From an uncultured bacterium (GTDB lineage: Bacteria > Patescibacteriota > Minisyncoccia > Phycocordibacterales > CAIZLB01): a stretch of 64,000 bases of DNA. Positions 7,183-45,938 of the stretch are shown piece after piece; within the stretch, counting starts at the first letter, position 1, and each line of letters opens with the position of its first letter. The stretch is taken from NCBI GenBank assembly GCA_903933735.1, contig CAIZLB010000006.1, positions 3,750-67,749 of the forward strand. Reading direction: 5' to 3'. Below the pieces are notes generated by a model. That model worked only from the letters and a program-made list of their open reading frames with translations, was not told the origin of the DNA and ran no database searches. Both the position numbers and the translations under genes were made by a program.

Positions 7183-7590
7183 TTAGTAGACTAATTTTCC
7201 ACCACTTTCTTTAATCCTTTTTCTCAGTTTTTCATCAAATGTTAGGATGTGATAGTTGTTCGATAAGTATAGTAATAAAACATCTACATAAGATAATCCG
7301 TCTTTATATTCTCTTATAAATAGGTTTAATATATCACGATTATTTTCATAGAAAAGTTTTATGGTTATGTTTAAACTATCTGTTGCAAATATATTAAATT
7401 CTCTTAACAGATCGGTGTTTTTTATTTTATTCTTTAATATAGTTAAAGATTCATAGAATATCAGATCTGGCATTATTTGTTCTTCCAGTAATATTTTTTC
7501 AAAAGACATGGCTTTTTTATGATTACTATCTTCGTGATTAAATAAAGAAATCCAAACACTGGAATCAACTATTATATTTTTAGATTCCAT
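7183..7590 (-). CDS. vapC: PIN-domain ribonuclease toxin (VapC-like)
   Basis: N-terminal IVDSSVWISLF with conserved acidic residues typical of PIN; overlaps the upstream small ORF by 11 nt. Confidence 0.75.
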   Translation of the reverse strand: MESKNIIVDSSVWISLFNHEDSNHKKAMSFEKILLEEQIMPDLIFYESLTILKNKIKNTDLLREFNIFATDSLNITIKLFYENNRDILNLFIREYKDGLSYVDVLLLYLSNNYHILTFDEKLRKRIKESGGKLVY

Positions 7591-13740: not shown

Positions 13741-13798
13741 GATAATTAATCAATAGGCTTTACACATAAGTATATTTTTATTATTATTAGGATTAATC

Positions 13799-16700
13799 AT
13801 GAATTATAAAATTTATTTCGCAATATTATCAATCTTCTTATTTTTCTTATCGATAAAAGCAAATGCTGCAACTGGTGAAGTCCAATTTAGCGTAGCTTCT
13901 CAATATCAATTTGGTAGTACCAATGATCTAACTAACAATTCAACGAATAGATATTATCCAAACGTTTTCGATGGTAATTTTTTTACTTTTGTTGATTCAT
14001 CAAATGCAAGTGGAGGTTATGCTGGTTTAGATCTTGGATCTGCGACTAGAGTAACCAAACTTAGAATCGTACCTAGAATCGGTGAAGCTTGGCGTGTGGC
14101 GGGTATGAAGTTACAAGGTACAAATATCAGTACATCTACTGCTACTTGGACTGATATATATACAATCCCCACACCAGTTTCTAAGCACTATACAGAACGT
14201 CAATATAATGAGTTTCCTATAGACACTGGAGGTGCAAGTTATAGATATTATAGGCTTAATTCTGCGGCAAACACTTATGAAAATATCGCAGAATATCGTC
14301 TAATAGGTAATGCCTCAACTACGACAAATTATCAACCTGTTGCCCCTATAATGAGTCCTATGGGGGGACGTTTTGATAAACCTATAAATGTCAGAATCAG
14401 TAGTTTGACGACAGATGCTACATTGTATTATACAACTGATGGGTCAATACCATCTGTTATAGCGGGGGTGCCACAGGGTACAACTTTGCAATATACGACC
14501 CCTTTTGTGATTTCGAATACTAATTCCACAACAACCATTAGATCTATAGCTGTACTTGATGGTAATAATGTGTCTGATACTTCAGATTCAGCTCAATTTA
14601 TAATCGATAAATCATTTAGACCAGGTCAAGATTGGTTCGATAATAATGGTAAACTGATAGAGTCACATGGCGGGGAAATAAAATATTTTAATGGAAAATA
14701 TTATTGGTATGGTACATCTTTTAATATTGCACCATCTGAGAACGTATCACCAAGTGCTGCTAACAGTGTTGGTGTCGTTACAACTTATTCATCACCTGAT
14801 CTAGTCAATTGGACTGATGAAGGTCAGGCTTTCTATGTAAGAGGGGTTAGGATGATTGGTACACACATATTATATAATCAAAATACATCCACTTATGTAT
14901 TATGGGGTCATAATGTGTTATCAAACCATCGTGCTGTTGTTGCTACATCTTCGTCACCTACGGGACCATTTACATTGGCGACAAGCACATTGAATCCAGA
15001 CGCAGGAGTTAATTTTGTAGATTTTAACCTATTTCAGGATACTGATGGAACAGGTTATGTGATCTATAACGTGACCTCAAATGCTATGATTATATCCAAA
15101 CTGGCACCTGATTATTTGTCTACACTTGGTGTTGGTAATTATGTTACAGCTTATACAGGATCAGCAAACAAAGTTGGTCAAGCTATGTTTAAAAAAGATA
15201 ATGTCTATTTCTTGATGAGTACAAGTCATAATACTTGGGGTACAACAACACCACAATATGCAACCTCGACTTCACCCCTTGGGACATGGTCTACGGCAGT
15301 TAATCCATTTCAACCTAGTGGATCAGCTGATTATACTACAGGTTATTTTTCTCAATCCACACATATTATTCAAATACCCGGAAGAACTAATGCTTTTATG
15401 TATATGGGTGATAGATATGACAATTCTAATTTATCAGGAAATGCCACAAACACTTCCTCTCTATATAATAGTAGACATGTACTCTTACCTATAACATTTC
15501 CAACACCTAGTTCTATGTCTATATCTTATTCTCCAACATGGACATTGGACGGTGCTTTTGTATCTACTAATCCTCCGACAGCTCCGTCTGGTCTTGCAGC
15601 GACAAAAGTTGGTCAAACCGTAAGTCTATCTTGGGCAAATAATGAAGCTAATTCATTTTCTATATTCTTAGACAGGGCTACTGACTCTTCATTTACTCAA
15701 AATGTTGTTTCTGAAGTATTGACTTCAACTACTACAAGTTTTGTTGATTCTTCAGTTGTTGATGGGACAGTATATTATTTTAGAATTAGAATATCAAACG
15801 GGTCCGGCACAACTAATTCCAGCACGGTATCATTTTCTCTAACAGCTGATACTAATCCACCTTCGGTGACTTTAATTTCACCTATAAATGATGCAACTTT
15901 ATCTGGTACAACCACTTTATCTGCAACTTCAACTGATGATATGGGAGTTGCTTCTATTAAATTTTTGATCGACGGTATTCAAACTGGAACTACAAGTACA
16001 ACTTCTCCATATTCTATAGTTTGGGATAGTTCAAGTGTTGAAAATGGTACACATACGGTTGCAGTAGTGGCTATAGATACATCTGGCAATCCGGCTACCT
16101 CAACTGTCTCTGTGACTGTTTCAAATATACAATCACCTTCGATATCTATTCCCACAATGTCTGTGCAGCCAGCATCATCTATTACTACAACAAGTGCTAC
16201 ATTGAATGGAAATATTGTATCTATAAATAATGCTTCATCGACAATGAGAGGTTTTAATTACGGCACTACCACATCTTATGGTTTATCCACCTCTACCAAT
16301 GGTACATATGATACTGGTTCATATTCACAAAGTATAAATGGTTTATTGTGTGCCACAACGTATCATTATCAATCATTTTCAATTAACTCTGCAGGTACTG
16401 GAACATCTACAGATCAGACTTTCACAACTTCAGCCTGTCCTATGTCTAGTATCTCTATCAGTCCTTCAAGTATTATGCAAAATGCAACAAGTACATCTGT
16501 TACAGTTATTGGAGTAAATACTAGCTGGACTGCAGGTACTCCTGGAACACCAACTTTTTCCTTAACTGGTGGTAATAGTGCAAGTATTGTTTCTCAAATC
16601 ATTAGCGGTAGTACTTCGGCTATATTAAATATTAATTCTGGAAGTGCGACCGGTACTTTGATAATCACTGATCCGTCATCAAATTCAACAACTTCTGTAT

Positions 16701-19700
16701 CTGTGATATCTGCTGCTTCAGCGTCTACATTGACCACTGATGTTGCCACATCGGTGACCGCTTCAAGTGTTACATTGAATGGAACAATAACCTCAACAGG
16801 AAGTGCGTCTCCAACCACAAGAGGTTTTCAATACGGCGGATCTATATATTACGGTGCAACCACCACAGAATCAGGAGTGTTTTCTACAGGTGCATTTAGT
16901 GTGTCACTTACAGGAATAGGTTGTAGTTCTACTTATCATTTTAGAGCCTATGCTTCTAGTACAGACGGTTTTACTTATGGAGCAGATAGGACTTTTACAA
17001 CTTCCGCTTGTGGAAATGCTAATGCTACAGGTGAAATACAATTCAGTGTGGGTGGATCTTATGGTTATGGTATAACAGGGGATAATGGATATTTAAATCA
17101 GGGTAATAGATATTACAAGGCTTATGACGGTGATTTTACAACTTATTGGGATTCAAATGCTACAAACCCTTGGATGGCCTTGGATTTGACTACTTTAGGT
17201 AGAGCAACTAGAATAAAGATTGCACCAGCATTGGGTTCAACTGCGAGAATTGCAGGATCGATATTGCAAGGTGCAACAGTTAATCCTCAATCTGGACCGT
17301 GGACAAATATTTACACTATTCCAACAGGATATTATCCTCAAAGACAATTTACAGAGTTACCAGTAGATACAGGTGGTGCTAGTTATCGATATTATAGAAT
17401 ATATACACCGTCAGGACTTGGTGGTAATATCTCTGAATTCAGAGTGATTGGATTGCCAGGTAATACAACTCCATATCAACCCGTAACACCTGTTATCGGA
17501 CCTATGGGTGGCCATTTTCCTACGCCAATAAAAGTTAGGATAAGCAGTCTAACAACCAGTGCTTCTGTATATTATACAACAGATGGTACAGACCCTACAT
17601 TTTCAGCAGGATCACCTCATGGAACAACCCAGCTGTATACTGCACCTATATTGGTTAATTCTACCACTACGATTAAATCAATAGCAGTTAGTGAAGGTCA
17701 ATTTGTATCCGACGTATCTGACCCCGCAAGGTTTTTTATAGGTACACAATTTGTTCCTGGTAGTGATTGGTATGATACAACAGGTCATCTTATAGAATCA
17801 CATAGTGGTGAGGTTAAGTTTTTTAATGGAAAATATTATTGGTATGGACAGATTCAGAATACTTATATGCCAGAATGGGAGAGGGTTGGTGTATCATGTT
17901 ATTCATCGACTGATTTGGTCAATTGGAAAGATGAAGGACCGGTTTTATATCTTGCAACTACGACATCGCCTATATCAAGTAATGCTATAATAGTAGAGAG
18001 ACCACATGTTATCTATAATTCAAGTACTGGTAAATATGTCCTATGGGGTCATAATTGGGTAGGGGGAACAGGTTCTGGTTCAATGGCTTTGATTGCACAA
18101 AGTAATTTACCATACGGGCCTTTTACAATTGTCACACAAGCCTATGATCCAAATGGATATGGTTTAAATGATATGAACCTATTTAAGGATGATGATGGTA
18201 CAGCTTATGTGATATATTCATCAGCGACTGACAGTAATGGACATTTCTTTATATCAAAACTCTCATCTGATTATTTGACCACACTGTCCGGTCAATATGT
18301 AAATCCTCCAACACTTATGGGTGCCAATAAACGCGAAGCACCAGCTATGGTAAAAAGAAACGGGGTATATTTCTTGTTGGGTTCAGGTGTTACAGGTTGG
18401 GGTATCAATGAAAACAAATATGCTACTTCGAGCTCACCTCTTGGAACTTGGTCATCTCTTGTAAATGAATTTCAGCCAAGTGTTTTGGAGGATTATACTT
18501 TAGCCTATCGTTCTCAAGGAACAAACGTGATTACAATTCCAGGTAGAACAGAGGGGTATATTTATATGGGTGACAGATTTGATCCAGGATTATCGGCAGG
18601 TGGAGCGGCTAATCAAAACTGGGGAGCTCTATTACTTTACGGTACTCGTCACGTGTGGCTCCCTGTAACTTTTCCAACCGACAATACAATGTCCATATCT
18701 TATTCACCTTCATGGACATTGGATGATGCCTTCGTAACAAGTCAGGGTCCTCAAGCGGCAACTGGATTTACGGCCATCAAATCTGGATTATCTAGTAGTC
18801 TGGCTTGGACAAATAATGAGATAAATGGATATACACTCTATGTTGATCGTGCTACAGATAGTAATTTTACTCAGAATATGTTTTCAGACTTAATTAATTC
18901 AAGTAATACAACTTATAATGATCCATATGTATCTTATGGTACAACATACTTTTATCGTCTGAGAACCGTTACTGCTGCAGGAACATCATTTTCAGAAACA
19001 AAGAGTATAGATTTTGGGTCGGCGCCAGATGTCACTGTACCTACAGTTTCAATACTGAGTCCAACTGTATCTGCAACTATTAGCGGTACTTCAACTGTGA
19101 TAACCGCAAGTTCATCTGATAATATTGGTATAACATCAGTACAATTTTATATAGATGCAACATCAACTGATGCTATGGGTACGACAACTCAATATTCCAT
19201 TGTTTGGGACTCTACTACCGTTGCTGATGGTGCACATATTATATCGGTTGTCGTATCTGATGCTGCTGGAAATACTGCTAGTTCAAGTGTTAACATCAAT
19301 GTGTCTAATACAGTAAATAGGCCAACCATATCTTCCGTTCATATATCATCTTCAAATAGTTATTCTGGTTATGCTAAAACAGATGATGTTATTACTTTGA
19401 CTTTCATTTCAGATCAAAATCTGATTAATAATCCTATTGTAACAATCGCAGGTCATGCTGTAACAGCGACTTCAACAGGTGTTTCAAATAATTATATAGC
19501 TAACTACACAATGCATTCTTCTGATAGCGAAGGTTCAATACCTTTCACTATAGATTTTACTGATACTTTAAGTGTGAACGGGTTTACTGTTTCTTCTACA
19601 AATGATTCTAGTTATATAGTATATGATAAAACCGGCCCTATAATAAATATTGCAGGATTACCTGTTGATAATGAATACTCATCTGTATTTTCTTATTCCT

Positions 19701-20635
19701 ATGCCTCCTCTACTGATACAAGGTCTGGCATAGCTAGTTATTTATGGTCTAAAATATCAGGTTTAGGTAATGTAACTTTTAGTAGTCCAACTTCTGCTAT
19801 AACAAATATATCAGCTGACAATAATGATAATTATGTAGTTAGATTGACTGTGACTGATAGAGTTGGCAACATCTCCACTTCAGATTTTAATTTTACATGG
19901 GTTCCAACAACAGGACTTTCTGTAGTAGATGTCGGTCCTGTTGGCTCAAATGTTTCTACTGCTGATGGTATATCAACGATTACATTTAATAAAAATATAA
20001 CGTTACTTAATTCTGGTAAGATAACTTTAGTTGATAATGTTACCGGTGTATCAAAAAAGACAAATGTATCAGTGGCTAATGGTGATGGTAATTCTGCAAT
20101 ATTGAATATCTCATATAGTGGATTAGAGAGTAATAAAGATTATCGTCTAACTATAAATCAAAATGCAATAAGAGATGATTCTGGTATTACAAACGGAACA
20201 AATATTTATTATTTCCATACAGCTTCATCCAATGCAACCGCAACTCTAGCAGTAACTGGTATAGATGCTATAAAAACATATGCTATATCTGATGGTACTT
20301 ATGCAAATGGGTGGAAATGGGTATTTCATATAACTGTACCTGATGCGGAAAACAGTTTTAGTTTGAGATTTGATAATTGGACAAATGGGTCAAATTCAAT
20401 ATCTGTTGCAAATAATATGAGATATTATTCAACTCAATCATCGAATAAGTCTAATATGAATAATCCTGTAAATATAACAAAGATAGGTTCATATGAGGCT
20501 GATATAATGAATCTTAATTCTGATCTTGATCCTACAAAATCAGGAAGACAGGTAGATGTAACAGTAGAGGTCGCTATACCAGTTGGTTCAGTCGGAGGTT
20601 CTTATTCAACAAGCTATAATATACATACTGAATAA
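13799..20635 (+). CDS. giant secreted glycoside hydrolase: two tandem supermodules of F5/8-type-C (discoidin), CHB_HEX_C-like, GH43-like beta-propeller, Fn3 and Ig-like domains
   Basis: Signal peptide; discoidin pattern (YDGDFTTYWDS..WMALDL, RYYRL..EYRLIG); GH43-like (DWFDNNGKLIESHGGEIKYFNGKYYWYG; EAPAMVKRNGVYFLL); internal duplication about 50% identical between aa 20-1070 and aa 1071-2278. Confidence 0.8.
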   Translation: MNYKIYFAILSIFLFFLSIKANAATGEVQFSVASQYQFGSTNDLTNNSTNRYYPNVFDGNFFTFVDSSNASGGYAGLDLGSATRVTKLRIVPRIGEAWRVAGMKLQGTNISTSTATWTDIYTIPTPVSKHYTERQYNEFPIDTGGASYRYYRLNSAANTYENIAEYRLIGNASTTTNYQPVAPIMSPMGGRFDKPINVRISSLTTDATLYYTTDGSIPSVIAGVPQGTTLQYTTPFVISNTNSTTTIRSIAVLDGNNVSDTSDSAQFIIDKSFRPGQDWFDNNGKLIESHGGEIKYFNGKYYWYGTSFNIAPSENVSPSAANSVGVVTTYSSPDLVNWTDEGQAFYVRGVRMIGTHILYNQNTSTYVLWGHNVLSNHRAVVATSSSPTGPFTLATSTLNPDAGVNFVDFNLFQDTDGTGYVIYNVTSNAMIISKLAPDYLSTLGVGNYVTAYTGSANKVGQAMFKKDNVYFLMSTSHNTWGTTTPQYATSTSPLGTWSTAVNPFQPSGSADYTTGYFSQSTHIIQIPGRTNAFMYMGDRYDNSNLSGNATNTSSLYNSRHVLLPITFPTPSSMSISYSPTWTLDGAFVSTNPPTAPSGLAATKVGQTVSLSWANNEANSFSIFLDRATDSSFTQNVVSEVLTSTTTSFVDSSVVDGTVYYFRIRISNGSGTTNSSTVSFSLTADTNPPSVTLISPINDATLSGTTTLSATSTDDMGVASIKFLIDGIQTGTTSTTSPYSIVWDSSSVENGTHTVAVVAIDTSGNPATSTVSVTVSNIQSPSISIPTMSVQPASSITTTSATLNGNIVSINNASSTMRGFNYGTTTSYGLSTSTNGTYDTGSYSQSINGLLCATTYHYQSFSINSAGTGTSTDQTFTTSACPMSSISISPSSIMQNATSTSVTVIGVNTSWTAGTPGTPTFSLTGGNSASIVSQIISGSTSAILNINSGSATGTLIITDPSSNSTTSVSVISAASASTLTTDVATSVTASSVTLNGTITSTGSASPTTRGFQYGGSIYYGATTTESGVFSTGAFSVSLTGIGCSSTYHFRAYASSTDGFTYGADRTFTTSACGNANATGEIQFSVGGSYGYGITGDNGYLNQGNRYYKAYDGDFTTYWDSNATNPWMALDLTTLGRATRIKIAPALGSTARIAGSILQGATVNPQSGPWTNIYTIPTGYYPQRQFTELPVDTGGASYRYYRIYTPSGLGGNISEFRVIGLPGNTTPYQPVTPVIGPMGGHFPTPIKVRISSLTTSASVYYTTDGTDPTFSAGSPHGTTQLYTAPILVNSTTTIKSIAVSEGQFVSDVSDPARFFIGTQFVPGSDWYDTTGHLIESHSGEVKFFNGKYYWYGQIQNTYMPEWERVGVSCYSSTDLVNWKDEGPVLYLATTTSPISSNAIIVERPHVIYNSSTGKYVLWGHNWVGGTGSGSMALIAQSNLPYGPFTIVTQAYDPNGYGLNDMNLFKDDDGTAYVIYSSATDSNGHFFISKLSSDYLTTLSGQYVNPPTLMGANKREAPAMVKRNGVYFLLGSGVTGWGINENKYATSSSPLGTWSSLVNEFQPSVLEDYTLAYRSQGTNVITIPGRTEGYIYMGDRFDPGLSAGGAANQNWGALLLYGTRHVWLPVTFPTDNTMSISYSPSWTLDDAFVTSQGPQAATGFTAIKSGLSSSLAWTNNEINGYTLYVDRATDSNFTQNMFSDLINSSNTTYNDPYVSYGTTYFYRLRTVTAAGTSFSETKSIDFGSAPDVTVPTVSILSPTVSATISGTSTVITASSSDNIGITSVQFYIDATSTDAMGTTTQYSIVWDSTTVADGAHIISVVVSDAAGNTASSSVNINVSNTVNRPTISSVHISSSNSYSGYAKTDDVITLTFISDQNLINNPIVTIAGHAVTATSTGVSNNYIANYTMHSSDSEGSIPFTIDFTDTLSVNGFTVSSTNDSSYIVYDKTGPIINIAGLPVDNEYSSVFSYSYASSTDTRSGIASYLWSKISGLGNVTFSSPTSAITNISADNNDNYVVRLTVTDRVGNISTSDFNFTWVPTTGLSVVDVGPVGSNVSTADGISTITFNKNITLLNSGKITLVDNVTGVSKKTNVSVANGDGNSAILNISYSGLESNKDYRLTINQNAIRDDSGITNGTNIYYFHTASSNATATLAVTGIDAIKTYAISDGTYANGWKWVFHITVPDAENSFSLRFDNWTNGSNSISVANNMRYYSTQSSNKSNMNNPVNITKIGSYEADIMNLNSDLDPTKSGRQVDVTVEVAIPVGSVGGSYSTSYNIHTE

Positions 20636-20638
20636 AAT

Positions 20639-21437
20639 TATGAATCTATACTATAAAAACAAAATATTAATTATTGTAATTTTAATATTTGTATCAATTA
20701 CAAATGTTAAGGCTTCGGATATATCTGGTACTATAAGTACTAATAATACCTTGAGTACAGGTTTGAGCGGGACAGTTGCTGACAGTGTTCCTACGTCAAG
20801 TGGTGGTTCGGGTGGTAGTAATTCCGGCAGTGCAGGTGGATTTATAGGTGTGCCAACAACAGCAACAACAACTGTTACAGTCACTCCTAATAAAATAATA
20901 GATATGAGTATACCTGTATTTTCTAAACAATTAAAAGTTGGTAGTGTTGGAATAGATGTTAAAAATTTACAAATATATTTAAATACTCATGGATATATTA
21001 TCGCTAAAAAAGGTCCCGGATCTGTAGGCAATGAGACAAATACTTTTGGTAGTTTAACTAAAGTCATGCTTACAAAATTCCAAAAAGATAAGGGGATAAA
21101 ACAGACAGGAGTTTTGGATGCTGAGACAATAAAAGTTATATCTAATACAAATGCAACAAGTACTATGGCTGTTGTTAATAATAATGTAAAAGTAAATTCA
21201 TTTACTAGAGATATGGGCACGGGAGACACAGGCTTGGATGTTAAGAGACTACAAATATATTTAAATTCTAACGGATATATTATTGCAAATTCAGGAGCTG
21301 GTTCTAAGGGAAATGAAACTGAAAAATTTGGCAGTGCGACTAAAAAAGCTGTAATAAAATTCCAGAAAGATCATGACTTACCGGCTACAGGTTTTTTTGG
21401 TCCTAAGACTAGAAAATTTATTGAAACAATGAAATAA
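20639..21437 (+). CDS. secreted protein with two PG_binding_1 (peptidoglycan-binding) domains
   Basis: Signal peptide MNLYYKNKILIIVILIFVSITNVKA; two copies of LQIYLN..GYII...G.ETxxFGSxTKxAVxKFQKD...TG. Start chosen at ATG 20639 rather than the overlapping 20583. Confidence 0.7.
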
Positions 21438-31134: not shown

Positions 31135-31720
31135 TGAAAACAATCAGCCGAAAGTGCTCCTTTTGGAAGCTCCTAAGTACGTTCCAAGGAGTGAGGAAGC
31201 TTCACGCCCCGTAGAGGCAAATAAGGGCATTTCCGAGGCTCCTTCCGACCCCTCGGATGCCCGTAAATACGGGCAAAATACGGGTAATTTAGATAGAGAC
31301 CCTGTCACAGGGCAGTTCCTCCCAGGGAACTCAGGTAAGCCATTGGGAGCCAGACATTTCAGCACAATGTTCAGAGATTACGTCCGTGAGGCTGGTGCCA
31401 TTACCAAGGATGGGCAAAAGGTTGGATTCGACAAGTTGATAGTGAAAAAGATGGTGAGTATGGCAGTGGACGGAAACCTTAAGGCGGCAGGAATGGTACT
31501 CGATCGTGTCGATGGAAAAGTCCCTCAAACATTCGAGGTAAACAAGACTGAGAGAATAGGAATCCTTGTAATGACCCAACAGGAAATCGAAGACCATGAA
31601 TCAATATTCAAACGAAAATATGCAGAACCAAATACCAAAGACAATAATACCTCCAGTGACGGAGCACGGAATGAAGACACTCCGAGAGTCACGGAAGGAA
31701 GTGCGTACGAAACACACTAA
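31112..31720 (+). CDS. putative terminase small subunit
   Basis: Position immediately upstream of large terminase; basic N-terminus; start chosen at ATG 31112 to avoid overlap with upstream gene. Confidence 0.35.
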   Translation: MSMNTKNNENNQPKVLLLEAPKYVPRSEEASRPVEANKGISEAPSDPSDARKYGQNTGNLDRDPVTGQFLPGNSGKPLGARHFSTMFRDYVREAGAITKDGQKVGFDKLIVKKMVSMAVDGNLKAAGMVLDRVDGKVPQTFEVNKTERIGILVMTQQEIEDHESIFKRKYAEPNTKDNNTSSDGARNEDTPRVTEGSAYETH

Positions 31721-33299
31721 GGAACACTTCGGGTACTTTCTCGCTTATTACCTTTCTAGGTATGTGAGGTGTGAGTACGCGGATTTTCACTACGAAATGA
31801 TGGCAGATGTGCATGACCTGTTGGATTTGAAAATAAGAGAGATTGCATGGTTCATGTTTGGAGAAAGTGCAAAGACAAGCTTTGTAAAAGGATTGATTCT
31901 GTACATGATTGCTTACGACATAGAGCCATACATCAACGCAGATGCGTTTGATAGTACAAACTCTGAACGTATCCTGTTCGACGTTGTGTGGGAGCTTCAG
32001 ACCAATAAAAGATTTATCGAAGACTTCGGAGAGAAATACAACACCACTCGAAGTAAAGATGAGGTAACCCAAAAGAGAGTAAAAGACTTCATCACCAATC
32101 CCATGAAAGATGACGATGGAAACATTATCAAGGAAGGAATACGTGTCGAAGCACACAGTACACAGGAATCAGTCCGAGGGCGTGTGCACGGAGCGATGCG
32201 TCCAGGCTTCGTGTTGCTGGATGACTTCGAAACCAAGAAGACTCTCAAAAGCGAAGCGTCAACAAACCAGATACGTACGCACATCCAAGAATTCAAGCGA
32301 GGTCTCGACTCTGCAAGACGGAGGGTTATATACCTCGGTAACATCCTGTCTGAATACGGAAACGTGCAAAGCATCATAGAACGTGGAAAGCATGATCCAG
32401 AATTGAGAGTGCGAATCGTTCCGATTTGCCAAGGAGACCTGATCACAGGAATACACACCCCAACATGGCCTGAACGATGGGTGATGACGGATGAGGAAGC
32501 CAAAGCAACAGGAAAGGTAAGCATCGAAAGTAAGAGGCGATCAATGTGGACACCAGAAGAAGGTGATATGGACTTTCAAGCAGAAATGTTGTGCCAACCA
32601 ATAGACGAATCAAAAGCAATCTTCAAGCGTGACTGGTTCATGCCAATAAGTTGGGATGACCTTTTGCAAAAGAAACTAGCGGCTTACGTGACACTTGATA
32701 CACCGAGTCGAAAAGAAGGAGAGGTTAGCAAAGACGGAGACTACGTGGGCATTTGCATCAACTGGGTAGACAGGGAAGGCAAATGGCATCTGAAAGCATG
32801 GAGAGAAAAGCTTGGTCCAACAGCGATAATCGAGAAGATGTTCGGTCTCTACGCATTCTTACTGCAGGCAGGTACACCACCGGTGAAGTTCGGATGGGAA
32901 GATACAGCGTTCACAAGAGGTCTTGAACCAATGCTAAGGCATGAGCAAAGAATGAGACAGATATTCCTACCACTCATGTGGCTCAAACATGCAGGAAGGT
33001 CGAAAGAGGATCGAATAAGAACAGGATTGCTGTACAGATACGAAACAAGAAGTGTCTATCACCTCAAGGGGGAATGCAAAGACTTGGAAAACGAGCTGAT
33101 GCGCTTTCCTGATGCAGACCATGACGATACGAGCGATGCAACAGCGTATCAAAGCGATATTGCACGTCCTGCGGGAATCGATAAGCCAAGAGATGCAAGA
33201 CCAGAGCCGATGATAGATACGGCATATGGCAAGGTAAAACCTGCATATGAAGATGAATTCTACGATGAAAGCCCTCAATACCCAGACATTGGGATATAG
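31596..33299 (+). CDS. terminase large subunit (start uncertain; possibly Met at 31671)
   Basis: Deviant Walker A FGESAKTS, Walker B-like GFVLLDDFE, C-terminal RNase-H-like nuclease acidic residues (VTLDTP...DADHDDTSDA). Confidence 0.6.
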   Translation: MNQYSNENMQNQIPKTIIPPVTEHGMKTLRESRKEVRTKHTKEHFGYFLAYYLSRYVRCEYADFHYEMMADVHDLLDLKIREIAWFMFGESAKTSFVKGLILYMIAYDIEPYINADAFDSTNSERILFDVVWELQTNKRFIEDFGEKYNTTRSKDEVTQKRVKDFITNPMKDDDGNIIKEGIRVEAHSTQESVRGRVHGAMRPGFVLLDDFETKKTLKSEASTNQIRTHIQEFKRGLDSARRRVIYLGNILSEYGNVQSIIERGKHDPELRVRIVPICQGDLITGIHTPTWPERWVMTDEEAKATGKVSIESKRRSMWTPEEGDMDFQAEMLCQPIDESKAIFKRDWFMPISWDDLLQKKLAAYVTLDTPSRKEGEVSKDGDYVGICINWVDREGKWHLKAWREKLGPTAIIEKMFGLYAFLLQAGTPPVKFGWEDTAFTRGLEPMLRHEQRMRQIFLPLMWLKHAGRSKEDRIRTGLLYRYETRSVYHLKGECKDLENELMRFPDADHDDTSDATAYQSDIARPAGIDKPRDARPEPMIDTAYGKVKPAYEDEFYDESPQYPDIGI

Positions 33300-33353: not shown

Positions 33354-35369
33354 ATGGCATTAGCCCACTACAAGAAACGAGATGAACTGGCAAAGCAAGC
33401 TCTCAAGGAGATAGATTTTTCATATCGGTATAAGAAAGCTCGAATGACTTCGTGGAATAAGAACGAGGATATGATGAACCCTGACAAGTCCAGTCCATCA
33501 GTCATCTCACCTTACGGAGGATCAACCAATCAGGCAGACACGAGAGCTCAAGTGCCTTTGTACAAGATGCATGGATATGTGCACACAATCCTCTCGAAGA
33601 TCGATAGTCCACTCACATTCAAGTACACCAAAGGTGAAACTGCAGATTTGAAGAAGTCCAAGCTGATGAACTCAATCAAGGATAAAGATGCGAAGATTGG
33701 ACGTTGGAATTTCAAAGACTTAATGGGTAAACGAGACGCAGCAATTTATGGTCGTGCGATTTATCTTTACATGACTCGAAACGATAAGGGTCAGTATCGA
33801 AGCCTTCTCAACCTTATCGATCCTAAAGACTTTCTGATTGATCCAGATGTGGGAGGTTTATGCACCGAAGAAGAAGACGGAAGTGGGGTGGAGAAGGCTG
33901 CATACCTCGGATGGTGGAATACCAAACTCACACGAGCTCAGATCACAAAAGGAATTAAAGATGGAATTTACTACAAGAAAGTTGCTGAAGAATTGATTGC
34001 TGGTGGTACGAATACGAAAGCAACAACCAATCAAGATAACGATAAGGACAACAGAAAGCCTTCAGGTGCTCCCCGTGAGCGATACAAGAACGAGAACCAA
34101 TTTATTTTTTATACATGGATAACCACAGACGAGAATGATGACCGATACTATCTCGTGCTGACACCTTCAGGAGACTGTATCAGGTGTGAGCCTTGGAAGG
34201 ATATTCGAAGAAGTGGAAAGTATCCGATATGGACATGGGCAGCGTTTCCAGACCCTCGAGAGTTCTGGACTCCATCGTATTGCGACTTTGCACGAGGAAT
34301 ATTCCAAGCTCAGGAAAAGAGTATCAATCAGTCTCTCGATAACTCAGAACAGATCAACAGACCTCAGACAGCAGTCAACGTTGACTATGTCCGCAACTTA
34401 GCGCAGGTTCGTTATAGAAAAGACGGTTACATTGAAATTGAAGGAAACGTAGACGTGAACCGAGTGCTCCAGACACGACAGACTCCACCGATTGAAGGTC
34501 CATTCAAGGTGTACGACAAACTCGAGTCCATCGTCGAATCAGAAAGCGGAGTAACAGCTGACGTGAAAGGTACGAGCGATGAAGACACTCTCGGGATTTA
34601 CGAAGGTAACCTCATGCAGGCAGGAGATCGATTCGGACTCCTAAACAAAAGCTATGCTGAAGGCTACTACCGATTTGCAGTACTTCACAAAGAAGGTGTG
34701 ATGCAAGATTTGAAAAAGAAGATGGCAGTCCAGATACTTGGTCCGATGGGACTTGAGATAGAGATGGTAAGTGCTCGAGACCTGAAACCTTATCAGAATG
34801 ACTACGACATCCTCGTAGAATCAAGTCTGGCTGAAGCTCAAAGTAATCTTGCAGACAGCAAGAACAAACTCACGTTCCTTGGAGCTTACAAAGGCGATCA
34901 GACAATCAACCAAAAAGTATTGTTCGAAACCCAAGCAACGATTGCGGGAGTAGATGACGACACAATCAAGAGACTCCTTGATACAAGTGATTACAACGCA
35001 ATCGAAGTCGTAGCTCAAGCAGACGAAGCATTCCAGATAATTCTAGGTGGCGAGACTCCTCCACTTTACAAGGATGCAAACACAGCGTTCCTACAGAGAC
35101 TCCATGACCTGTCTGACAAATACGATCACGAATTGAGTTCTGAACAACATGCGGCAGTATTCTCCTACATCGACAACATAACACCGATTGTAGAGAGGAA
35201 CGCTGCTCGCTCGGTAGTTGCCGAGTCTGCAAAGGCAGGACTTATCAGCGGAGGGGGTCGGATGGTCGATGGAGCCGAACTTAAAGATGCTGAACTTGCT
35301 GCAGGAGAATCAATCCCACCAGGTGACCCAGGTGCGGAGGCAGCTGCAACCGCAGCATTATCAAAATAA
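33354..35369 (+). CDS. putative portal protein
   Basis: 671 aa, directly downstream of terminase; size and position typical. Confidence 0.4.
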   Translation: MALAHYKKRDELAKQALKEIDFSYRYKKARMTSWNKNEDMMNPDKSSPSVISPYGGSTNQADTRAQVPLYKMHGYVHTILSKIDSPLTFKYTKGETADLKKSKLMNSIKDKDAKIGRWNFKDLMGKRDAAIYGRAIYLYMTRNDKGQYRSLLNLIDPKDFLIDPDVGGLCTEEEDGSGVEKAAYLGWWNTKLTRAQITKGIKDGIYYKKVAEELIAGGTNTKATTNQDNDKDNRKPSGAPRERYKNENQFIFYTWITTDENDDRYYLVLTPSGDCIRCEPWKDIRRSGKYPIWTWAAFPDPREFWTPSYCDFARGIFQAQEKSINQSLDNSEQINRPQTAVNVDYVRNLAQVRYRKDGYIEIEGNVDVNRVLQTRQTPPIEGPFKVYDKLESIVESESGVTADVKGTSDEDTLGIYEGNLMQAGDRFGLLNKSYAEGYYRFAVLHKEGVMQDLKKKMAVQILGPMGLEIEMVSARDLKPYQNDYDILVESSLAEAQSNLADSKNKLTFLGAYKGDQTINQKVLFETQATIAGVDDDTIKRLLDTSDYNAIEVVAQADEAFQIILGGETPPLYKDANTAFLQRLHDLSDKYDHELSSEQHAAVFSYIDNITPIVERNAARSVVAESAKAGLISGGGRMVDGAELKDAELAAGESIPPGDPGAEAAATAALSK

Positions 35370-44369: not shown

Positions 44370-45938
44370 ATGAATTCCTACACGATACAGTACGGCGATA
44401 CCTTAAGTGGAATCGCATCAAAGACGGGTAAGAGCGTTCAGGAACTGATGCGTCTCAATCCGTCTATTACTGATCCCAACAAAATATATGCTGGGCGCTC
44501 TTTGTCGTTGGGAAATTCAACACCCGCACCCGCATCTACACCTGCTCCTGCATCAAATAATTCAAAGCAGACTATTGCTCAGGTGGCAAAAGTAACGGTC
44601 CCGACTTATGTTGAAGATCCAACAACGACACAAATAGGAAAAAGCTACAAGTCCCAAGCTACTGACACCGTAAACGAAGAAGCTGTCAGATCAGCTACAA
44701 GAGCACGTATTCAGGGGCAAATTGACGCCATAAATGCCGCTGTGAGCGATCAAATAGCAAACTTCAGGAATACCACAGGGAAGAATCGCCAAGGCCAATC
44801 GTACGCCCTCGCAGCAGCTGGTGGCCGAATTGGAAGTGCAACTGGAGAGGCGGAATTTAGGACAACAGAAGACTATAACAATCAAGAGGAGCAGACATAC
44901 CGAAGTGAGGCGAATGTGAAGATCTCACAATTACTAGGTGCTTCAATGCGGGATGCTCAGGCAGAAATTGAAGCGAAGCGTACTGCAATCAAAGAAGGTG
45001 CTGAAAAGTACTTCCAGTTCCTCGAGACACAAGGTCAACGAAAGAAAGATCAGATCACATCATTCCTCAAAAACATGCTCGCACTTGGAGTTGATCCAAA
45101 AGAAATTAGTGATGCTGACTTTGAAAACATTCAAGATCAGTATGGATTCAGTAAAGATCAGCTTGTCTCGTTGTTTGGTGATCTGAAAGCGCAAAAAGTA
45201 GCTGCTGATCAGGAAGCACAAATGGATGCAGCTGATCTTGATCAAAAGAAAGCAACTACAGAAAAAACACGAGCTGAAATAAATCAATTTGATCTTAGTG
45301 AGGGTCAGGCTCGATATGTTTATGATCCTGAAACCCGGAAGACGACAGTCATTGCTTCAAAAGCAAAAACGTATGCACCAACAGGTGGTGGTACTTCATC
45401 TGACCCTGTTATTGATTCATGGGTAAGTCAGATTAATGGCGGAAAGGCTACGATCGCAAACGTACCGGCGAACCTTAAGAACGCTGTCATCACCGCACTC
45501 AATAACTCGACACCACAAGATTCAGGCTATCAGATAAGCAATCTCAAAGGCGCACTCGATAATGTACAAAAGCTCAAAGGTGCGGCAGGTCCTAGTGCAA
45601 TAAGCAGAAAGCTCGGTGACGTTTTTGTTGGTGATTCTTCATTTAGACAACTTGAGGCGTACGTAGATACTGTTAAATCAAATCTTCTTACTCTGGTAAC
45701 AGATCCAAATATTAAAAAGTTCTTCGGTCCGCAGATGTCTAACCGTGACGTTGAGCTCATGACTTCAACTGCGTCATCTCTTGATGCGCAACGCTTAAGT
45801 CCTGAACAGATTCAGGCAGAAGTAGATAAGGTCAATGCCTTCTTGGTGAAATACGAAGCTGCCCGCAATAGCAGTGGTCTTGTCGATACCACAGCTACAC
45901 CAGAACAAAATGCATTAAGGACTAAATATCAATACTAA
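44370..45938 (+). CDS. LysM-domain protein with PAPAS linker and coiled-coil
   Basis: N-terminal LysM (YTIQYGDTLSGIASKTG...IYAGRSL). Confidence 0.6.
   Translation: MNSYTIQYGDTLSGIASKTGKSVQELMRLNPSITDPNKIYAGRSLSLGNSTPAPASTPAPASNNSKQTIAQVAKVTVPTYVEDPTTTQIGKSYKSQATDTVNEEAVRSATRARIQGQIDAINAAVSDQIANFRNTTGKNRQGQSYALAAAGGRIGSATGEAEFRTTEDYNNQEEQTYRSEANVKISQLLGASMRDAQAEIEAKRTAIKEGAEKYFQFLETQGQRKKDQITSFLKNMLALGVDPKEISDADFENIQDQYGFSKDQLVSLFGDLKAQKVAADQEAQMDAADLDQKKATTEKTRAEINQFDLSEGQARYVYDPETRKTTVIASKAKTYAPTGGGTSSDPVIDSWVSQINGGKATIANVPANLKNAVITALNNSTPQDSGYQISNLKGALDNVQKLKGAAGPSAISRKLGDVFVGDSSFRQLEAYVDTVKSNLLTLVTDPNIKKFFGPQMSNRDVELMTSTASSLDAQRLSPEQIQAEVDKVNAFLVKYEAARNSSGLVDTTATPEQNALRTKYQY

Follow-up and report, generated by a model that had tools for sequence, protein, structure and literature searches.

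A giant, predicted secreted GH43_24-like protein of a patescibacterium with one degenerate and one intact propeller and a putative cell-wall docking partner

The window, by which we mean the whole 64,000-nucleotide stretch of DNA analyzed here, contains on its forward strand a single ORF of 2278 aa at positions 13799–20635, which occupies 10.7% of the window. Judged by its sequence, the product is a giant, secreted, multi-domain GH43 protein, with a leader that was identified by eye; a hydrophobic leader is present in all homologues and ends right before (A)TGEVQFS. The reading that we favor, with a probability of about 0.6, is that of a Sec-exported GH43_24-like enzyme that has been doubled, in which the first copy would be dead and the second working, and which would be docked to a small PG_binding_1 protein. 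Its housekeeping CysRS assigns the organism to the Patescibacteria. The GC content is 0.29–0.39 per 2-kb window up to 26 kb, consistent with the AT-rich character given in the preliminary description, and the ORF size (more than 10% of the window) and both motifs quoted there were likewise confirmed in the protein. A prophage-like insert starts at 26 kb of the window.

Table 1. Layout of the 2278-aa protein and its downstream neighbor, in window coordinates.
Feature	Residues (aa)	Position	Strand	Evidence
Signal peptide, MNYKIYFAILSIFLFFLSIKANA then ATGEV...	1–23	13799..13867	+	by eye from sequence
Supermodule 1 CBM62-like beta-sandwich	24–181	13868..14341	+	phmmer PDB 2yb7 (CtCBM62), E 3.9e-8
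Supermodule 1 CHB_HEX_C_1/Fn3_assoc	182–268	14342..14602	+	Pfam PF13290/PF13287
Supermodule 1 GH43_24-like five-bladed propeller, predicted catalytically degenerate	269–592	14603..15574	+	PDB matches, MSA, AF2
Supermodule 1 Fn3-like	593–684	15575..15850	+	Pfam fn3 E 0.017, sub-threshold
Supermodule 1 Big_7 bacterial Ig	685–782	15851..16144	+	Pfam PF17957, best stretch 688–756
Inter-module linker: Fn3/Pur_ac_phosph_N-like repeat, Ig-like domain, repeat again	783–1075	16145..17023	+	
Supermodule 2 CBM62-like beta-sandwich	1076–1229	17024..17485	+	phmmer PDB 2yb7, E 1.7e-14
Supermodule 2 CHB_HEX_C_1/Fn3_assoc	1230–1313	17486..17737	+	Pfam best stretches 1235–1306, 1246–1307
Supermodule 2 GH43_24-like propeller, catalytic set intact	1314–1650	17738..18748	+	PDB matches, MSA
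Supermodule 2 Fn3-like	1651–1744	18749..19030	+	Pfam fn3 E 0.0067, sub-threshold
Supermodule 2 Big_7 Ig	1745–1844	19031..19330	+	second Big_7 stretch; weak Big_13 at 1783–1835
Ig-like tail	1845–2140	19331..20218	+	K319L-like PKD aa 1970–2031, Pfam PF22352 E 6.6e-11 (segment)
C-terminal conserved beta-sandwich, no database model; proposed docking module	2141–2278	20219..20632	+	
Downstream gene, 265-aa secreted protein, proposed cell-wall anchor/adaptor		20640..21437	+	Pfam PG_binding_1 6.3e-29

The protein is built on an internal doubling. Residues 24–782 and 1076–1844 align by BLASTP with 47.5% identity over 786 columns, and a global alignment of the supermodules gave 50% identity with a score of 1823, compared with −38 ± 25 for shuffled sequences. 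Both copies follow the order CBM62-like, CHB_HEX_C, GH43, Fn3-like, and Big_7 (Table 1), and the paired accessory domains are 49% (CBM62-like), 61% (CHB_HEX_C_1/Fn3_assoc), 42% (Fn3-like), and 45% (Big_7) identical, which bears out the tandem duplication of a five-domain supermodule with GH43-type propellers. The collinearity originally drawn between residues 20–1070 and 1071–2278 stands for this part but does not extend to the linker (783–1075) and the tail (1845–2278), which are unrelated to each other (local score of 88 versus 82 ± 12 for shuffled sequences). The linker carries a repeat of its own (approximately residues 785–882 versus 973–1075, local score 234) with a weak Pfam match to Pur_ac_phosph_N (E 0.094), and the tail segments beside the K319L-like PKD domain have no Pfam match. 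An artefact, whether from wrong assembly, wrong ORF calling, or the recent expansion of a repeat, would be suggested by the general risk of metagenome assembly alone, and we consider its probability negligible: the identical 2278-aa product was found on at least 11 metagenome contigs from several samples, which excludes an assembly artefact, the halves are just about 50% identical, which excludes repeat collapse or expansion, and all 13 homologues share the two-supermodule architecture.

Over the whole protein, Pfam detects two stretches each of GH43 (113.7 bits), Big_7, and CHB_HEX_C_1/Fn3_assoc, the last in agreement with the CHB_HEX_C-like domain described for each half, whereas the Fn3 domains of that description were found in Pfam at sub-threshold level. 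What had been called a discoidin domain is better described as CBM62-like, as both N-terminal modules resemble, over their whole length and at the sequence level, CtCBM62 of Clostridium thermocellum CtXyl5A (2YB7, 5G56), and Pfam gave no F5_F8_type_C match in the protein. F5_F8_type_C is recorded for homologues of the 2278-aa protein. CtCBM62 is likewise accessory to an enzyme that acts on plant polysaccharides, but here the module precedes the catalytic domain and occurs twice. CBM62 is associated with D-galactose-bearing glycans (PMC5063996), and the two modules would target the protein to such glycans, with the Ig and Fn3 domains acting as spacers.

By sequence comparison, both propellers are nearest to the exo-beta-1,3-galactanases of GH43 subfamily 24 and not to arabinan or xylan enzymes. 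Copy 1 matches the PDB entries 6eug (3e-32) and 3vsf (1.5e-20), and copy 2 matches 6eug (1.5e-50), 3vsf (2.3e-45), and 7bys (2.4e-41). In sequence as well as in fold, both copies are best matched by the five-bladed beta-1,3-galactan GH43 propellers of BT3683 and BT0265 from Bacteroides thetaiotaomicron (6EUG–6EUJ), Ct1,3Gal43A (3VSF), and Pc1,3Gal43A (7BYS), to which the propellers are 31–41% identical; a putative B. bifidum beta-1,3-galactan GH43 enzyme is also among the closest solved relatives. The AF2 model of copy 1 has a pLDDT of 78.5, and its top Foldseek matches are GH43 beta-1,3-galactosidases (TMq 0.71–0.77). Known GH43_24 enzymes are proteins of approximately 300–530 residues with a single catalytic domain, in contrast to the two propellers, one of them acid-less, within 2278 residues here. 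A galactan- or galactose-type CBM partner is common to both, which is CBM13 or CBM35 in the known enzymes and CBM62-like in this protein.

We assigned residue equivalents in an MSA with numbered references, using the numbering of Pc1,3Gal43A and the residue roles from PMC7939473; HMMER alignments reproduced E57, E102, R103, Y126, D158, E208, W229, and Q263 exactly. In copy 2, E1400, R1401, D1458, N1480, E1513 (acid), G1533, W1534, and Q1573 (base) are retained, so that it shares with the GH43_24 enzymes the Glu acid, the Gln base, the Glu/Arg pair recognizing the C4-OH, and the Asp158 and Trp229 equivalents. It departs from the characterized enzymes at two of eight subsite −1 positions. Gln (Q1351) takes the place of Glu57, a change found in 13 of the 14 proteins of the family. 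Tyr is also missing at the Tyr126 position, which is occupied by Gly or Ser in the window protein and in a relative with 75% identity, and by S or N in three further homologues. Because of these two changes, the specificity of copy 2 may not be beta-1,3-galactan. We propose that the C-terminal propeller is the working enzyme, with E1513 as the general acid, Q1573 as the unusual Gln base, and E1400/R1401 recognizing the sugar. It would most likely be an inverting exo-glycosidase on galactose-containing polymers, for which the beta-1,3-galactan backbone of type II arabinogalactan is our best guess.

The N-terminal propeller appears to have kept the fold while losing the acid and most of subsite −1. 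T306, I353, G354, and V459 stand in place of Glu57, Glu102, Arg103, and Glu208, the Tyr126 loop is deleted, and D408, W480, and Q519 are retained; the loop at the acid position has a Val and no acidic residue. The same pattern runs through the family. The equivalents of E102, R103, D158, N180, E208, W229, and Q263 are kept in copy 2 of all 14 proteins, indicating that hydrolysis itself is selected, and E208 is missing from copy 1 of all 14, where S, D, N, V, or A is found instead. In an NJ tree, the copy-1 domains form one clade and the copy-2 domains its sister, with the references outside. Since the doubling, the acid-less copy 1, and the intact copy 2 recur in all 13 homologues, the duplication must be old, and copy 1 is presumably a pseudoenzyme that has been maintained; an ancestral mature protein of the same five-domain order would have been duplicated head to tail before the family radiated.

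That both propellers are active and have subfunctionalized toward distinct substrates, for example arabinan and xylan, is thus quite improbable. Both copies pass Pfam GH43 and keep the Gln263 and Asp158 equivalents in the window protein, copy 1 is under constraint (between-orthologue conservation of 0.47, compared with 0.32–0.56 for the other accessory domains), and the Asp at the acid position of some homologues (P0004–6, P0008–9, and P0014) could in principle act as the acid. However, copy 1 of the window protein has Val there and Ile-Gly for Glu102-Arg103, and in Pc1,3Gal43A mutation of Glu102, Glu208 (E208A/Q), or Gln263 abolishes detectable activity (PMC7939473). The preliminary description had claimed two catalytic domains, proposed a check of the catalytic residues in both copies, and named their absence from one copy as a refutation; the check found the acid and the Glu/Arg pair lost from copy 1. 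The arabinan or xylan substrate fits neither the GH43_24 beta-1,3-galactan relatives nor the flanking galactose-associated CBM62-like modules, while the functional divergence of the copies holds up.

Copy 1 might serve as a scaffold or a remodeled binding domain. GH18 chi-lectins keep a glycoside-hydrolase fold without the catalytic acid and bind their sugar. Copy 1 is likewise acid-less, conserved among orthologues, and confidently modeled with a GH43_24-like fold; unlike in the chi-lectins, the presumably dead domain sits in the same polypeptide as its live paralogue. Retained sugar binding is doubtful because subsite −1 is mostly replaced (T306, I353, G354, and the deleted Tyr126 loop).

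A rather doubtful alternative is that the protein mainly serves an episymbiotic CPR cell for adhesion to, or interaction with, its host. The Ig array, together with the dead propeller and the CBM62-like modules, would then bind a host-envelope glycan, and the live propeller would trim or breach this glycan instead of feeding on plant or algal arabinogalactan. The patescibacterial CysRS and the origin of one of the 13 homologues from a Saccharibacteria MAG are in line with this, as are the long Ig/Fn3 stalk with lectin-type modules, the retained pseudoenzyme, and the E57Q and Y126 changes, which hint at a non-canonical ligand. The strict conservation of the copy 2 catalytic residues argues against it, and beta-1,3-galactopyranan is a plant-type structure. 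PMC11623550 describes the cultivated members of the group as obligate episymbionts, which fits this reading, and credits host binding in cultured Saccharibacteria to type IV pili, which speaks against it.

Returning to the docked enzyme, we consider it probable, on the basis of gene adjacency and fusions, that the neighboring small protein ties its C-terminal domain to the cell wall. The C-terminal 138 residues make up a conserved beta-sandwich that has 686 cluster representatives and is covered by no Pfam model. In the structural model of this domain the sandwich is complete and no strand is obviously lacking, which counts against docking. In the 265-aa protein, a signal peptide is followed by the conserved mature N-terminus SDISGTIST..., a Ser/Gly/Thr linker, and two PG_binding_1 domains. 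Its gene starts 5 nt after the stop of the giant gene (20635 to 20640), and this gap contains no terminator-like site. An orthologue with 38% identity follows homologue P0010 in the same gene pair, and the 265-aa protein is 57% identical to the PG_binding_1 part fused at the end of P0004.

In eight of eight informative loci, the next gene after the one with the terminal domain encodes a small secreted protein that bears the shared N-terminal motif (motif alignment). Given the nearby YchF, the loci of the window, L002, and L005/L006 perhaps represent a single orthologous locus and would then be non-independent. The adaptor invariably ends in a module for anchoring. This module is PG_binding_1 or, in some loci, Dockerin_1, in which case the gene that follows encodes a membrane-anchored cohesin. 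The pair recurs in unrelated genomic contexts with different heads, and family members without the sandwich carry a fused PG_binding_1, which is found in P0003–P0008, P0011–P0014, and L003. Free release of the enzyme, with an unrelated PG_binding_1 neighbor and the sandwich as a carbohydrate-binding or spacer domain, is unlikely in view of these patterns, and the recurrent anchor-bearing neighbor and the fusions suggest non-covalent cell-wall anchoring. In the docking model, the 2278-aa protein, which has no covalent anchor of its own, would dock with its sandwich onto the co-transcribed 265-aa protein, and the latter would keep the complex attached to peptidoglycan through its two PG_binding_1 domains.

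The logic of cargo, small adaptor, and anchor is common to cohesin–dockerin cellulosomes, but the adaptor here ends in PG_binding_1 and the cargo has neither dockerin nor cohesin. The proposed contact, between the unannotated sandwich and the short conserved N-terminal motif SE[VI][TS]GT..., matches no described pair. A 'simple two-subunit cellulosome' has been noted in a rhizosphere Saccharibacterium (PMC6031116).

The giant gene encodes a secreted protein of 2278 aa and takes up 10.7% of the window, in keeping with the preliminary description, which had put this single gene at more than 10%. Gene calling recovers an identical product from at least 11 metagenome contigs of several samples, so the gene is not an assembly artefact. 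Pfam resolved Glyco_hydro_43, Big_7 and CHB_HEX_C_1/Fn3_assoc in two stretches each and one K319L-like PKD domain, together with a sub-threshold call for Fn3, and an NCBIfam search returned only a weak OmpL47 match. Because self-BLAST of the whole protein gave the identity match only, we compared the two halves with each other, which yielded one long collinear match between aa 24-782 and aa 1076-1844 with 47.5% identity over 786 columns. The global alignment of these two blocks scored 1823, as against -38 ± 25 for shuffled sequence, and the copies resemble each other in the CBM62-like (49% identity), CHB_HEX_C (61%), GH43 (52%), Fn3-like (42%) and Big_7 (45%) domains. Collinearity, which had been claimed for the entire halves, thus holds for the two blocks but not for the linker (aa 783-1075) and the tail (aa 1845-2278), which show no kinship (score 88 vs 82 ± 12 for shuffles). 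Both blocks open with the motif ATGE(V/I)QFS, in block 1 directly after the signal peptide, indicating that the whole mature ancestral protein was duplicated. The linker has an internal repeat of its own; it carries two Fn3/Pur_ac_phosph_N-like domains on either side of an Ig-like domain, both ending in ...TFTTSAC and each with a second conserved Cys.

The N-terminal domain of each block is predicted to be CBM62-like. CtCBM62 (2YB7), a module associated with D-galactose-bearing glycans (PMC5063996), was matched across the module in both cases, with an E-value of 3.9e-8 for block 1 (query 22-150 of 158 aa, corresponding to aa ~45-173) and 1.7e-14 for block 2 (query 21-147 of 154 aa, aa 1096-1222).

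The GH43 profile PF04616 matched the giant protein in two stretches with 113.7 bits (cut-off 32.2), and the family HMM placed the two domains at aa 271-585 (copy 1) and 1316-1648 (copy 2). The closest solved relatives of both propellers are BT3683 (6EUG/H/I), BT0265 (6EUF), Ct1,3Gal43A (3VSF) and Pc1,3Gal43A (7BYS), together with 5FLW from B. bifidum, for which the beta-1,3-galactan activity is putative. Copy 2 has the stronger sequence matches to GH43 structures, with E-values to the beta-1,3-galactan enzymes of 1e-50 to 1e-30 vs 3e-32 to 5e-16 for copy 1, and other GH43 entries in the PDB are far worse (E≥1e-13 by sequence, E≥2.5e-15 by fold). The AF2 model of copy 1 (pLDDT 78.5, pTM 0.83) is an all-beta, five-bladed propeller; in Foldseek it matched GH43 structures with an E-value of 1e-23 and TMq of 0.71-0.77, and its nine best PDB matches are all beta-1,3-galactan GH43 enzymes. 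The propellers are therefore best regarded as putative members of, or nearest neighbors to, subfamily 24 rather than other GH43 subfamilies. The beta-1,3-galactan relatives belong to this subfamily (PMC7939473), and a member of it would be expected to act as an exo-beta-1,3-galactanase and to pass over beta-1,6 side chains. Arabinan or xylan, on which assays of the expressed domains had been proposed, is not the expected substrate, because the best solved relatives, including all top PDB matches, act on beta-1,3-galactan.

The Asp that usually serves as base is missing from GH43_24 enzymes; Pc1,3Gal43A uses Glu208 as acid and Gln263 as base, the C4-OH is recognised by Glu102, and activity was undetectable in mutants of each of the three (PMC7939473). 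These residues, together with Glu57, Arg103, Tyr126, Asp158 and Trp229, make up the subsite -1 set, and a comparison of three solved GH43_24 enzymes showed all eight to be kept (PMC7939473). The references were aligned with copies 1 and 2 from the window protein and from 13 homologues. The reference sequences were rebuilt from HMMER alignments in a numbering that reproduces all eight subsite -1 residues, and the motifs flanking the catalytic columns align unambiguously. Copy 2 keeps six of the eight positions, among them the acid, the base, Glu102 and Arg103, as well as N1480 and G1533. It does not keep the full set, since Glu57 is replaced by Gln and the Tyr126 column falls on G1425 or the adjoining Ser of the loop. 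Only three positions are kept in copy 1, and from the acid, the base and the Glu102/Arg103 set it retains the Gln of the base alone. With Val, Ile and Gly in place of Glu208, Glu102 and Arg103 and with the Tyr126 loop deleted, copy 1 cannot use the known mechanism. The preliminary description had proposed two catalytic GH43 domains; the catalytic residues agree with this for copy 2 and contradict it for copy 1. It had itself named the absence of catalytic residues from one copy as a refutation, and copy 1 shows just this. Overall, its observation is confirmed in part and its interpretation supported in part.

Residues of the two propellers at the subsite -1 positions of Pc1,3Gal43A
Pc1,3Gal43A	Copy 2	Copy 1
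Glu57	Q1351	T306
Glu102	E1400	I353
Arg103	R1401	G354
Tyr126	not Tyr (loop GGTGSGS)	loop deleted
Asp158	D1458	D408
Glu208 (acid)	E1513	V459
Trp229	W1534	W480
Gln263 (base)	Q1573	Q519

The changes at Glu57 and Tyr126 hint that the specificity of copy 2 may be shifted from canonical beta-1,3-galactan. The backbone of type II arabinogalactan would be a reasoned guess for the substrate, and a weaker one because two subsite residues are changed. Gln occupies the Glu57 position of the presumably live propeller (aa 1351) in 13 of the 14 family members, and the Tyr126 position (about aa 1425) is not Tyr in the window protein, in the 75%-identical protein of contig L003 and in the homologues P0002, P0003 and P0010.

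The 13 homologues, found by database search, are 1840-3794 aa long and have the same two-block architecture. In copy 2, Glu102, Arg103, Asp158, Asn180, Glu208, Trp229 and Gln263 are kept in all 14 proteins (window and homologues). In copy 1, the acid Glu is absent from all 14, with S, D, N, V or A instead; the Tyr126 loop is missing from every homologue, and most are also without Glu102 and Gln263. A neighbour-joining tree groups the copy-1 domains in one clade and the copy-2 domains in its sister clade, with the references outside, indicating a single duplication older than the family. Conservation between orthologues is 0.47 for copy 1, 0.53 for copy 2 and 0.32-0.56 for the other accessory domains; being as conserved as the latter and only slightly below copy 2, copy 1 is not decaying. 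Judged from alignment and model, copy 1 is a putative maintained pseudoenzyme. Retained galactose binding is not assumed for it, because most of the sugar-contact residues are replaced, and we infer a role as a scaffold or a new binding surface.

Taken together, the giant protein is predicted to be a tandemly doubled glycosidase of the GH43_24-like type that carries CBM62-like modules and has a live and a dead propeller. Its architecture is new for an otherwise known kind of enzyme, and the protein is kept throughout a Patescibacteria-associated family. The literature that we searched held no earlier description of a Saccharibacteria GH43, of an inactive tandem GH43 or of giant surface proteins in Patescibacteria. 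Patescibacteria have tiny genomes, and to our knowledge little is known of how they feed and hold on to surfaces or hosts. The expense of 6.8 kb on one secreted enzyme, with the dead copy kept family-wide, suggests strong selection on the giant protein. The propeller pair illustrates cleanly, in nature, how an enzyme doubled in tandem can maintain a copy that has lost its catalytic residues, and it makes an assayable prediction: a galactan-type substrate, with E1513 essential and copy 1 inactive. A genome scan returned two related loci only, one of which is L003, labelled Desulfobacteraceae. L003 (CAIMCT010000120.1, 6.4 kb) encodes the nearest relative (75% identity over supermodule 2), whose tail differs from the window's and terminates in a fused PG_binding_1; the contig's label 'uncultured Desulfobacteraceae' is probably a binning error on a short contig.

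Although it carries a signal peptide, the giant protein lacks a transmembrane, LPXTG or lipoprotein anchor. No terminator-like site lies between its stop and the next gene. The product of that gene, 265 aa long, also has a signal peptide and, besides a Ser/Gly/Thr linker, two copies of PG_binding_1 (PF01471, 100.4 bits in two stretches, cut-off 23). P0010, the only homologue with the tail of the window protein, is also followed by a separate PG_binding_1 gene. In P0003-P0008, P0011-P0014 and the L003 protein, PG_binding_1 is fused at the C-terminus, and the fused domain is 57% identical to the downstream protein of the window. This pattern of fusion and fission across the family argues that the giant and downstream proteins act together on peptidoglycan, and a plausible, possibly novel two-gene anchoring system is predicted. 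The downstream frame might also be read as the C-terminus of the giant gene, split off by a frameshift; we rejected this reading because P0010 ends alike with a separate gene and because the downstream gene has a signal peptide of its own. Pfam found neither Dockerin_1 nor Cohesin in the giant and downstream proteins; both occur only in other loci that carry the terminal domain of the giant protein.

This terminal domain comprises the last 138 residues (aa 2141-2278) and matches no Pfam or NCBIfam model. Its AF2 model is an all-beta sandwich with a pLDDT of 95.2, for which a fold search in BFVD gave no significant match. An exhaustive HMMER search with the domain returned 686 cluster representatives at E≤1e-3, including 595 at E≤1e-10; in the best 155 of the 686, it lies at the extreme C-terminus in 86 and at the N-terminus just after the leader in 50. 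Seven carriers scanned against Pfam are otherwise rich in Ig, HYR, PKD and fn3 domains, except for one without any Pfam match. A small secreted protein, here called the adaptor, is the next gene in eight of eight informative loci (a ninth, cut by the contig end, is outside this count), at a distance of 5-26 nt except at locus P0254, where it overlaps the end of the carrier gene by about 20 nt. In all seven of these loci whose DNA was analysed, the mature N-terminus of the adaptor reads A↓SE(V/I)(T/S)GT(L/I)xTG...G(T/I)V(I/V)xxP(T/S)A(S/T)P, and this motif is the sole element of the window adaptor that is common to all the others. It is followed by an optional CHB_HEX_C domain and an anchoring module, which is PG_binding_1 in the window, L002, L005/6 and L007, and Dockerin_1 in L008 and L010; three downstream proteins are truncated or have a different end. 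The gene after the L008 and L010 adaptors encodes a product with a C-terminal transmembrane helix, with a Pfam match to Cohesin in L008 and none in its similar-looking L010 counterpart.

From these sequences we infer that the terminal domain may dock onto the N-terminal motif of the adaptor. Diverse large cargos, such as the GH43 enzyme of the window or the Ig/HYR/PKD-rich proteins of other loci, would carry the beta-sandwich at one terminus, and the cognate adaptor would tie them to peptidoglycan through PG_binding_1 or, through dockerin, to a membrane-anchored cohesin. The heads, i.e. the carrier parts ahead of the terminal domain, could be swapped on a constant cassette of tail and adaptor: in L005, which is syntenic and also beside YchF, a different upstream gene precedes the same tail domain and adaptor, which suggests that heads are exchangeable. 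We tentatively give a probability of roughly 0.4 to the reading that the terminal domain and the adaptor motif SE[VI][TS]GT..TG..G.V constitute a widespread system of non-covalent surface display that has not been described before. The literature search found neither this domain-motif pair nor a cohesin/dockerin precedent of it in Patescibacteria; for a Saccharibacterium, a 'simple two-subunit cellulosome' is on record (PMC6031116). If the docking is true, the module would be the more general pay-off, explaining how many large surface proteins in metagenomes attach to the cell wall and giving a handle for finding them. In L005 (GCA_964417855.1) and L006, both syntenic with the window, the giant GH43 gene is absent, and a 769-aa DUF5907-like gene is followed by a 390-nt gap, a 167-aa ORF and the PG_binding_1 adaptor. 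The 167-aa ORF is the terminal domain alone (61% identical, no signal peptide), and the arrangement looks like a head replacement or a broken gene.

Coordinates of features in the window and of the corresponding regions in loci from other assemblies
Feature	Sequence	Coordinates	Strand
PIN-domain gene	window	7183-7590	-
Promoter-like site	window	13759-13787	
Giant gene	window	13799-20635	+
Linker region	window	16145-17023	
Propeller of copy 2	window	17738-18748	
Terminal domain	window	20219-20632	
Adaptor gene	window	20640-21437	+
Prophage-like insertion	window	~26000-61900	
Terminase large subunit (insertion)	window	31596-33299	
Portal (insertion)	window	33354-35369	
Transglycosylase-like gene (insertion)	window	44370-45938	
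Terminal domain and adaptor	L002	9056-9868	
Terminal domain and adaptor	L005	6001-7366	
Syntenic region without giant GH43 gene	L005	3302-7366	
Terminal domain and adaptor	L007	3001-8902	
Terminal domain and adaptor	L008	302-6516	
Terminal domain and adaptor	L009	1935-8445	
Terminal domain and adaptor	L010	2501-8381	
Terminal domain and adaptor	L011	3001-5830	

The giant gene is flanked by housekeeping genes (DnaB, CysRS, YchF, DnaJ and L21). The best named relatives of the CysRS are from Patescibacteria/Parcubacteria MAGs at 57-58% identity, and the homologue P0002 (contig L004) belongs to a MAG that bears the label Candidatus Saccharibacteria. Neither Rfam nor a tRNA scan gave matches in the window, and a promoter/terminator scan, with a single promoter-like site, did no better than on shuffles. 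The window also holds a prophage-like insertion with a Rep_O-like gene and two DNA methyltransferases in addition to the genes in the table; the GC content is 0.43-0.46 across ~26-48 kb, vs 0.29-0.39 up to 26 kb. On another contig with an identical giant gene, YchF is followed directly by a PDT/ACT gene and GreA, indicating that the prophage-like element is polymorphic in the population. Amid the housekeeping genes, the PIN-domain gene and a 90-aa ORF upstream of it look like a toxin-antitoxin pair.
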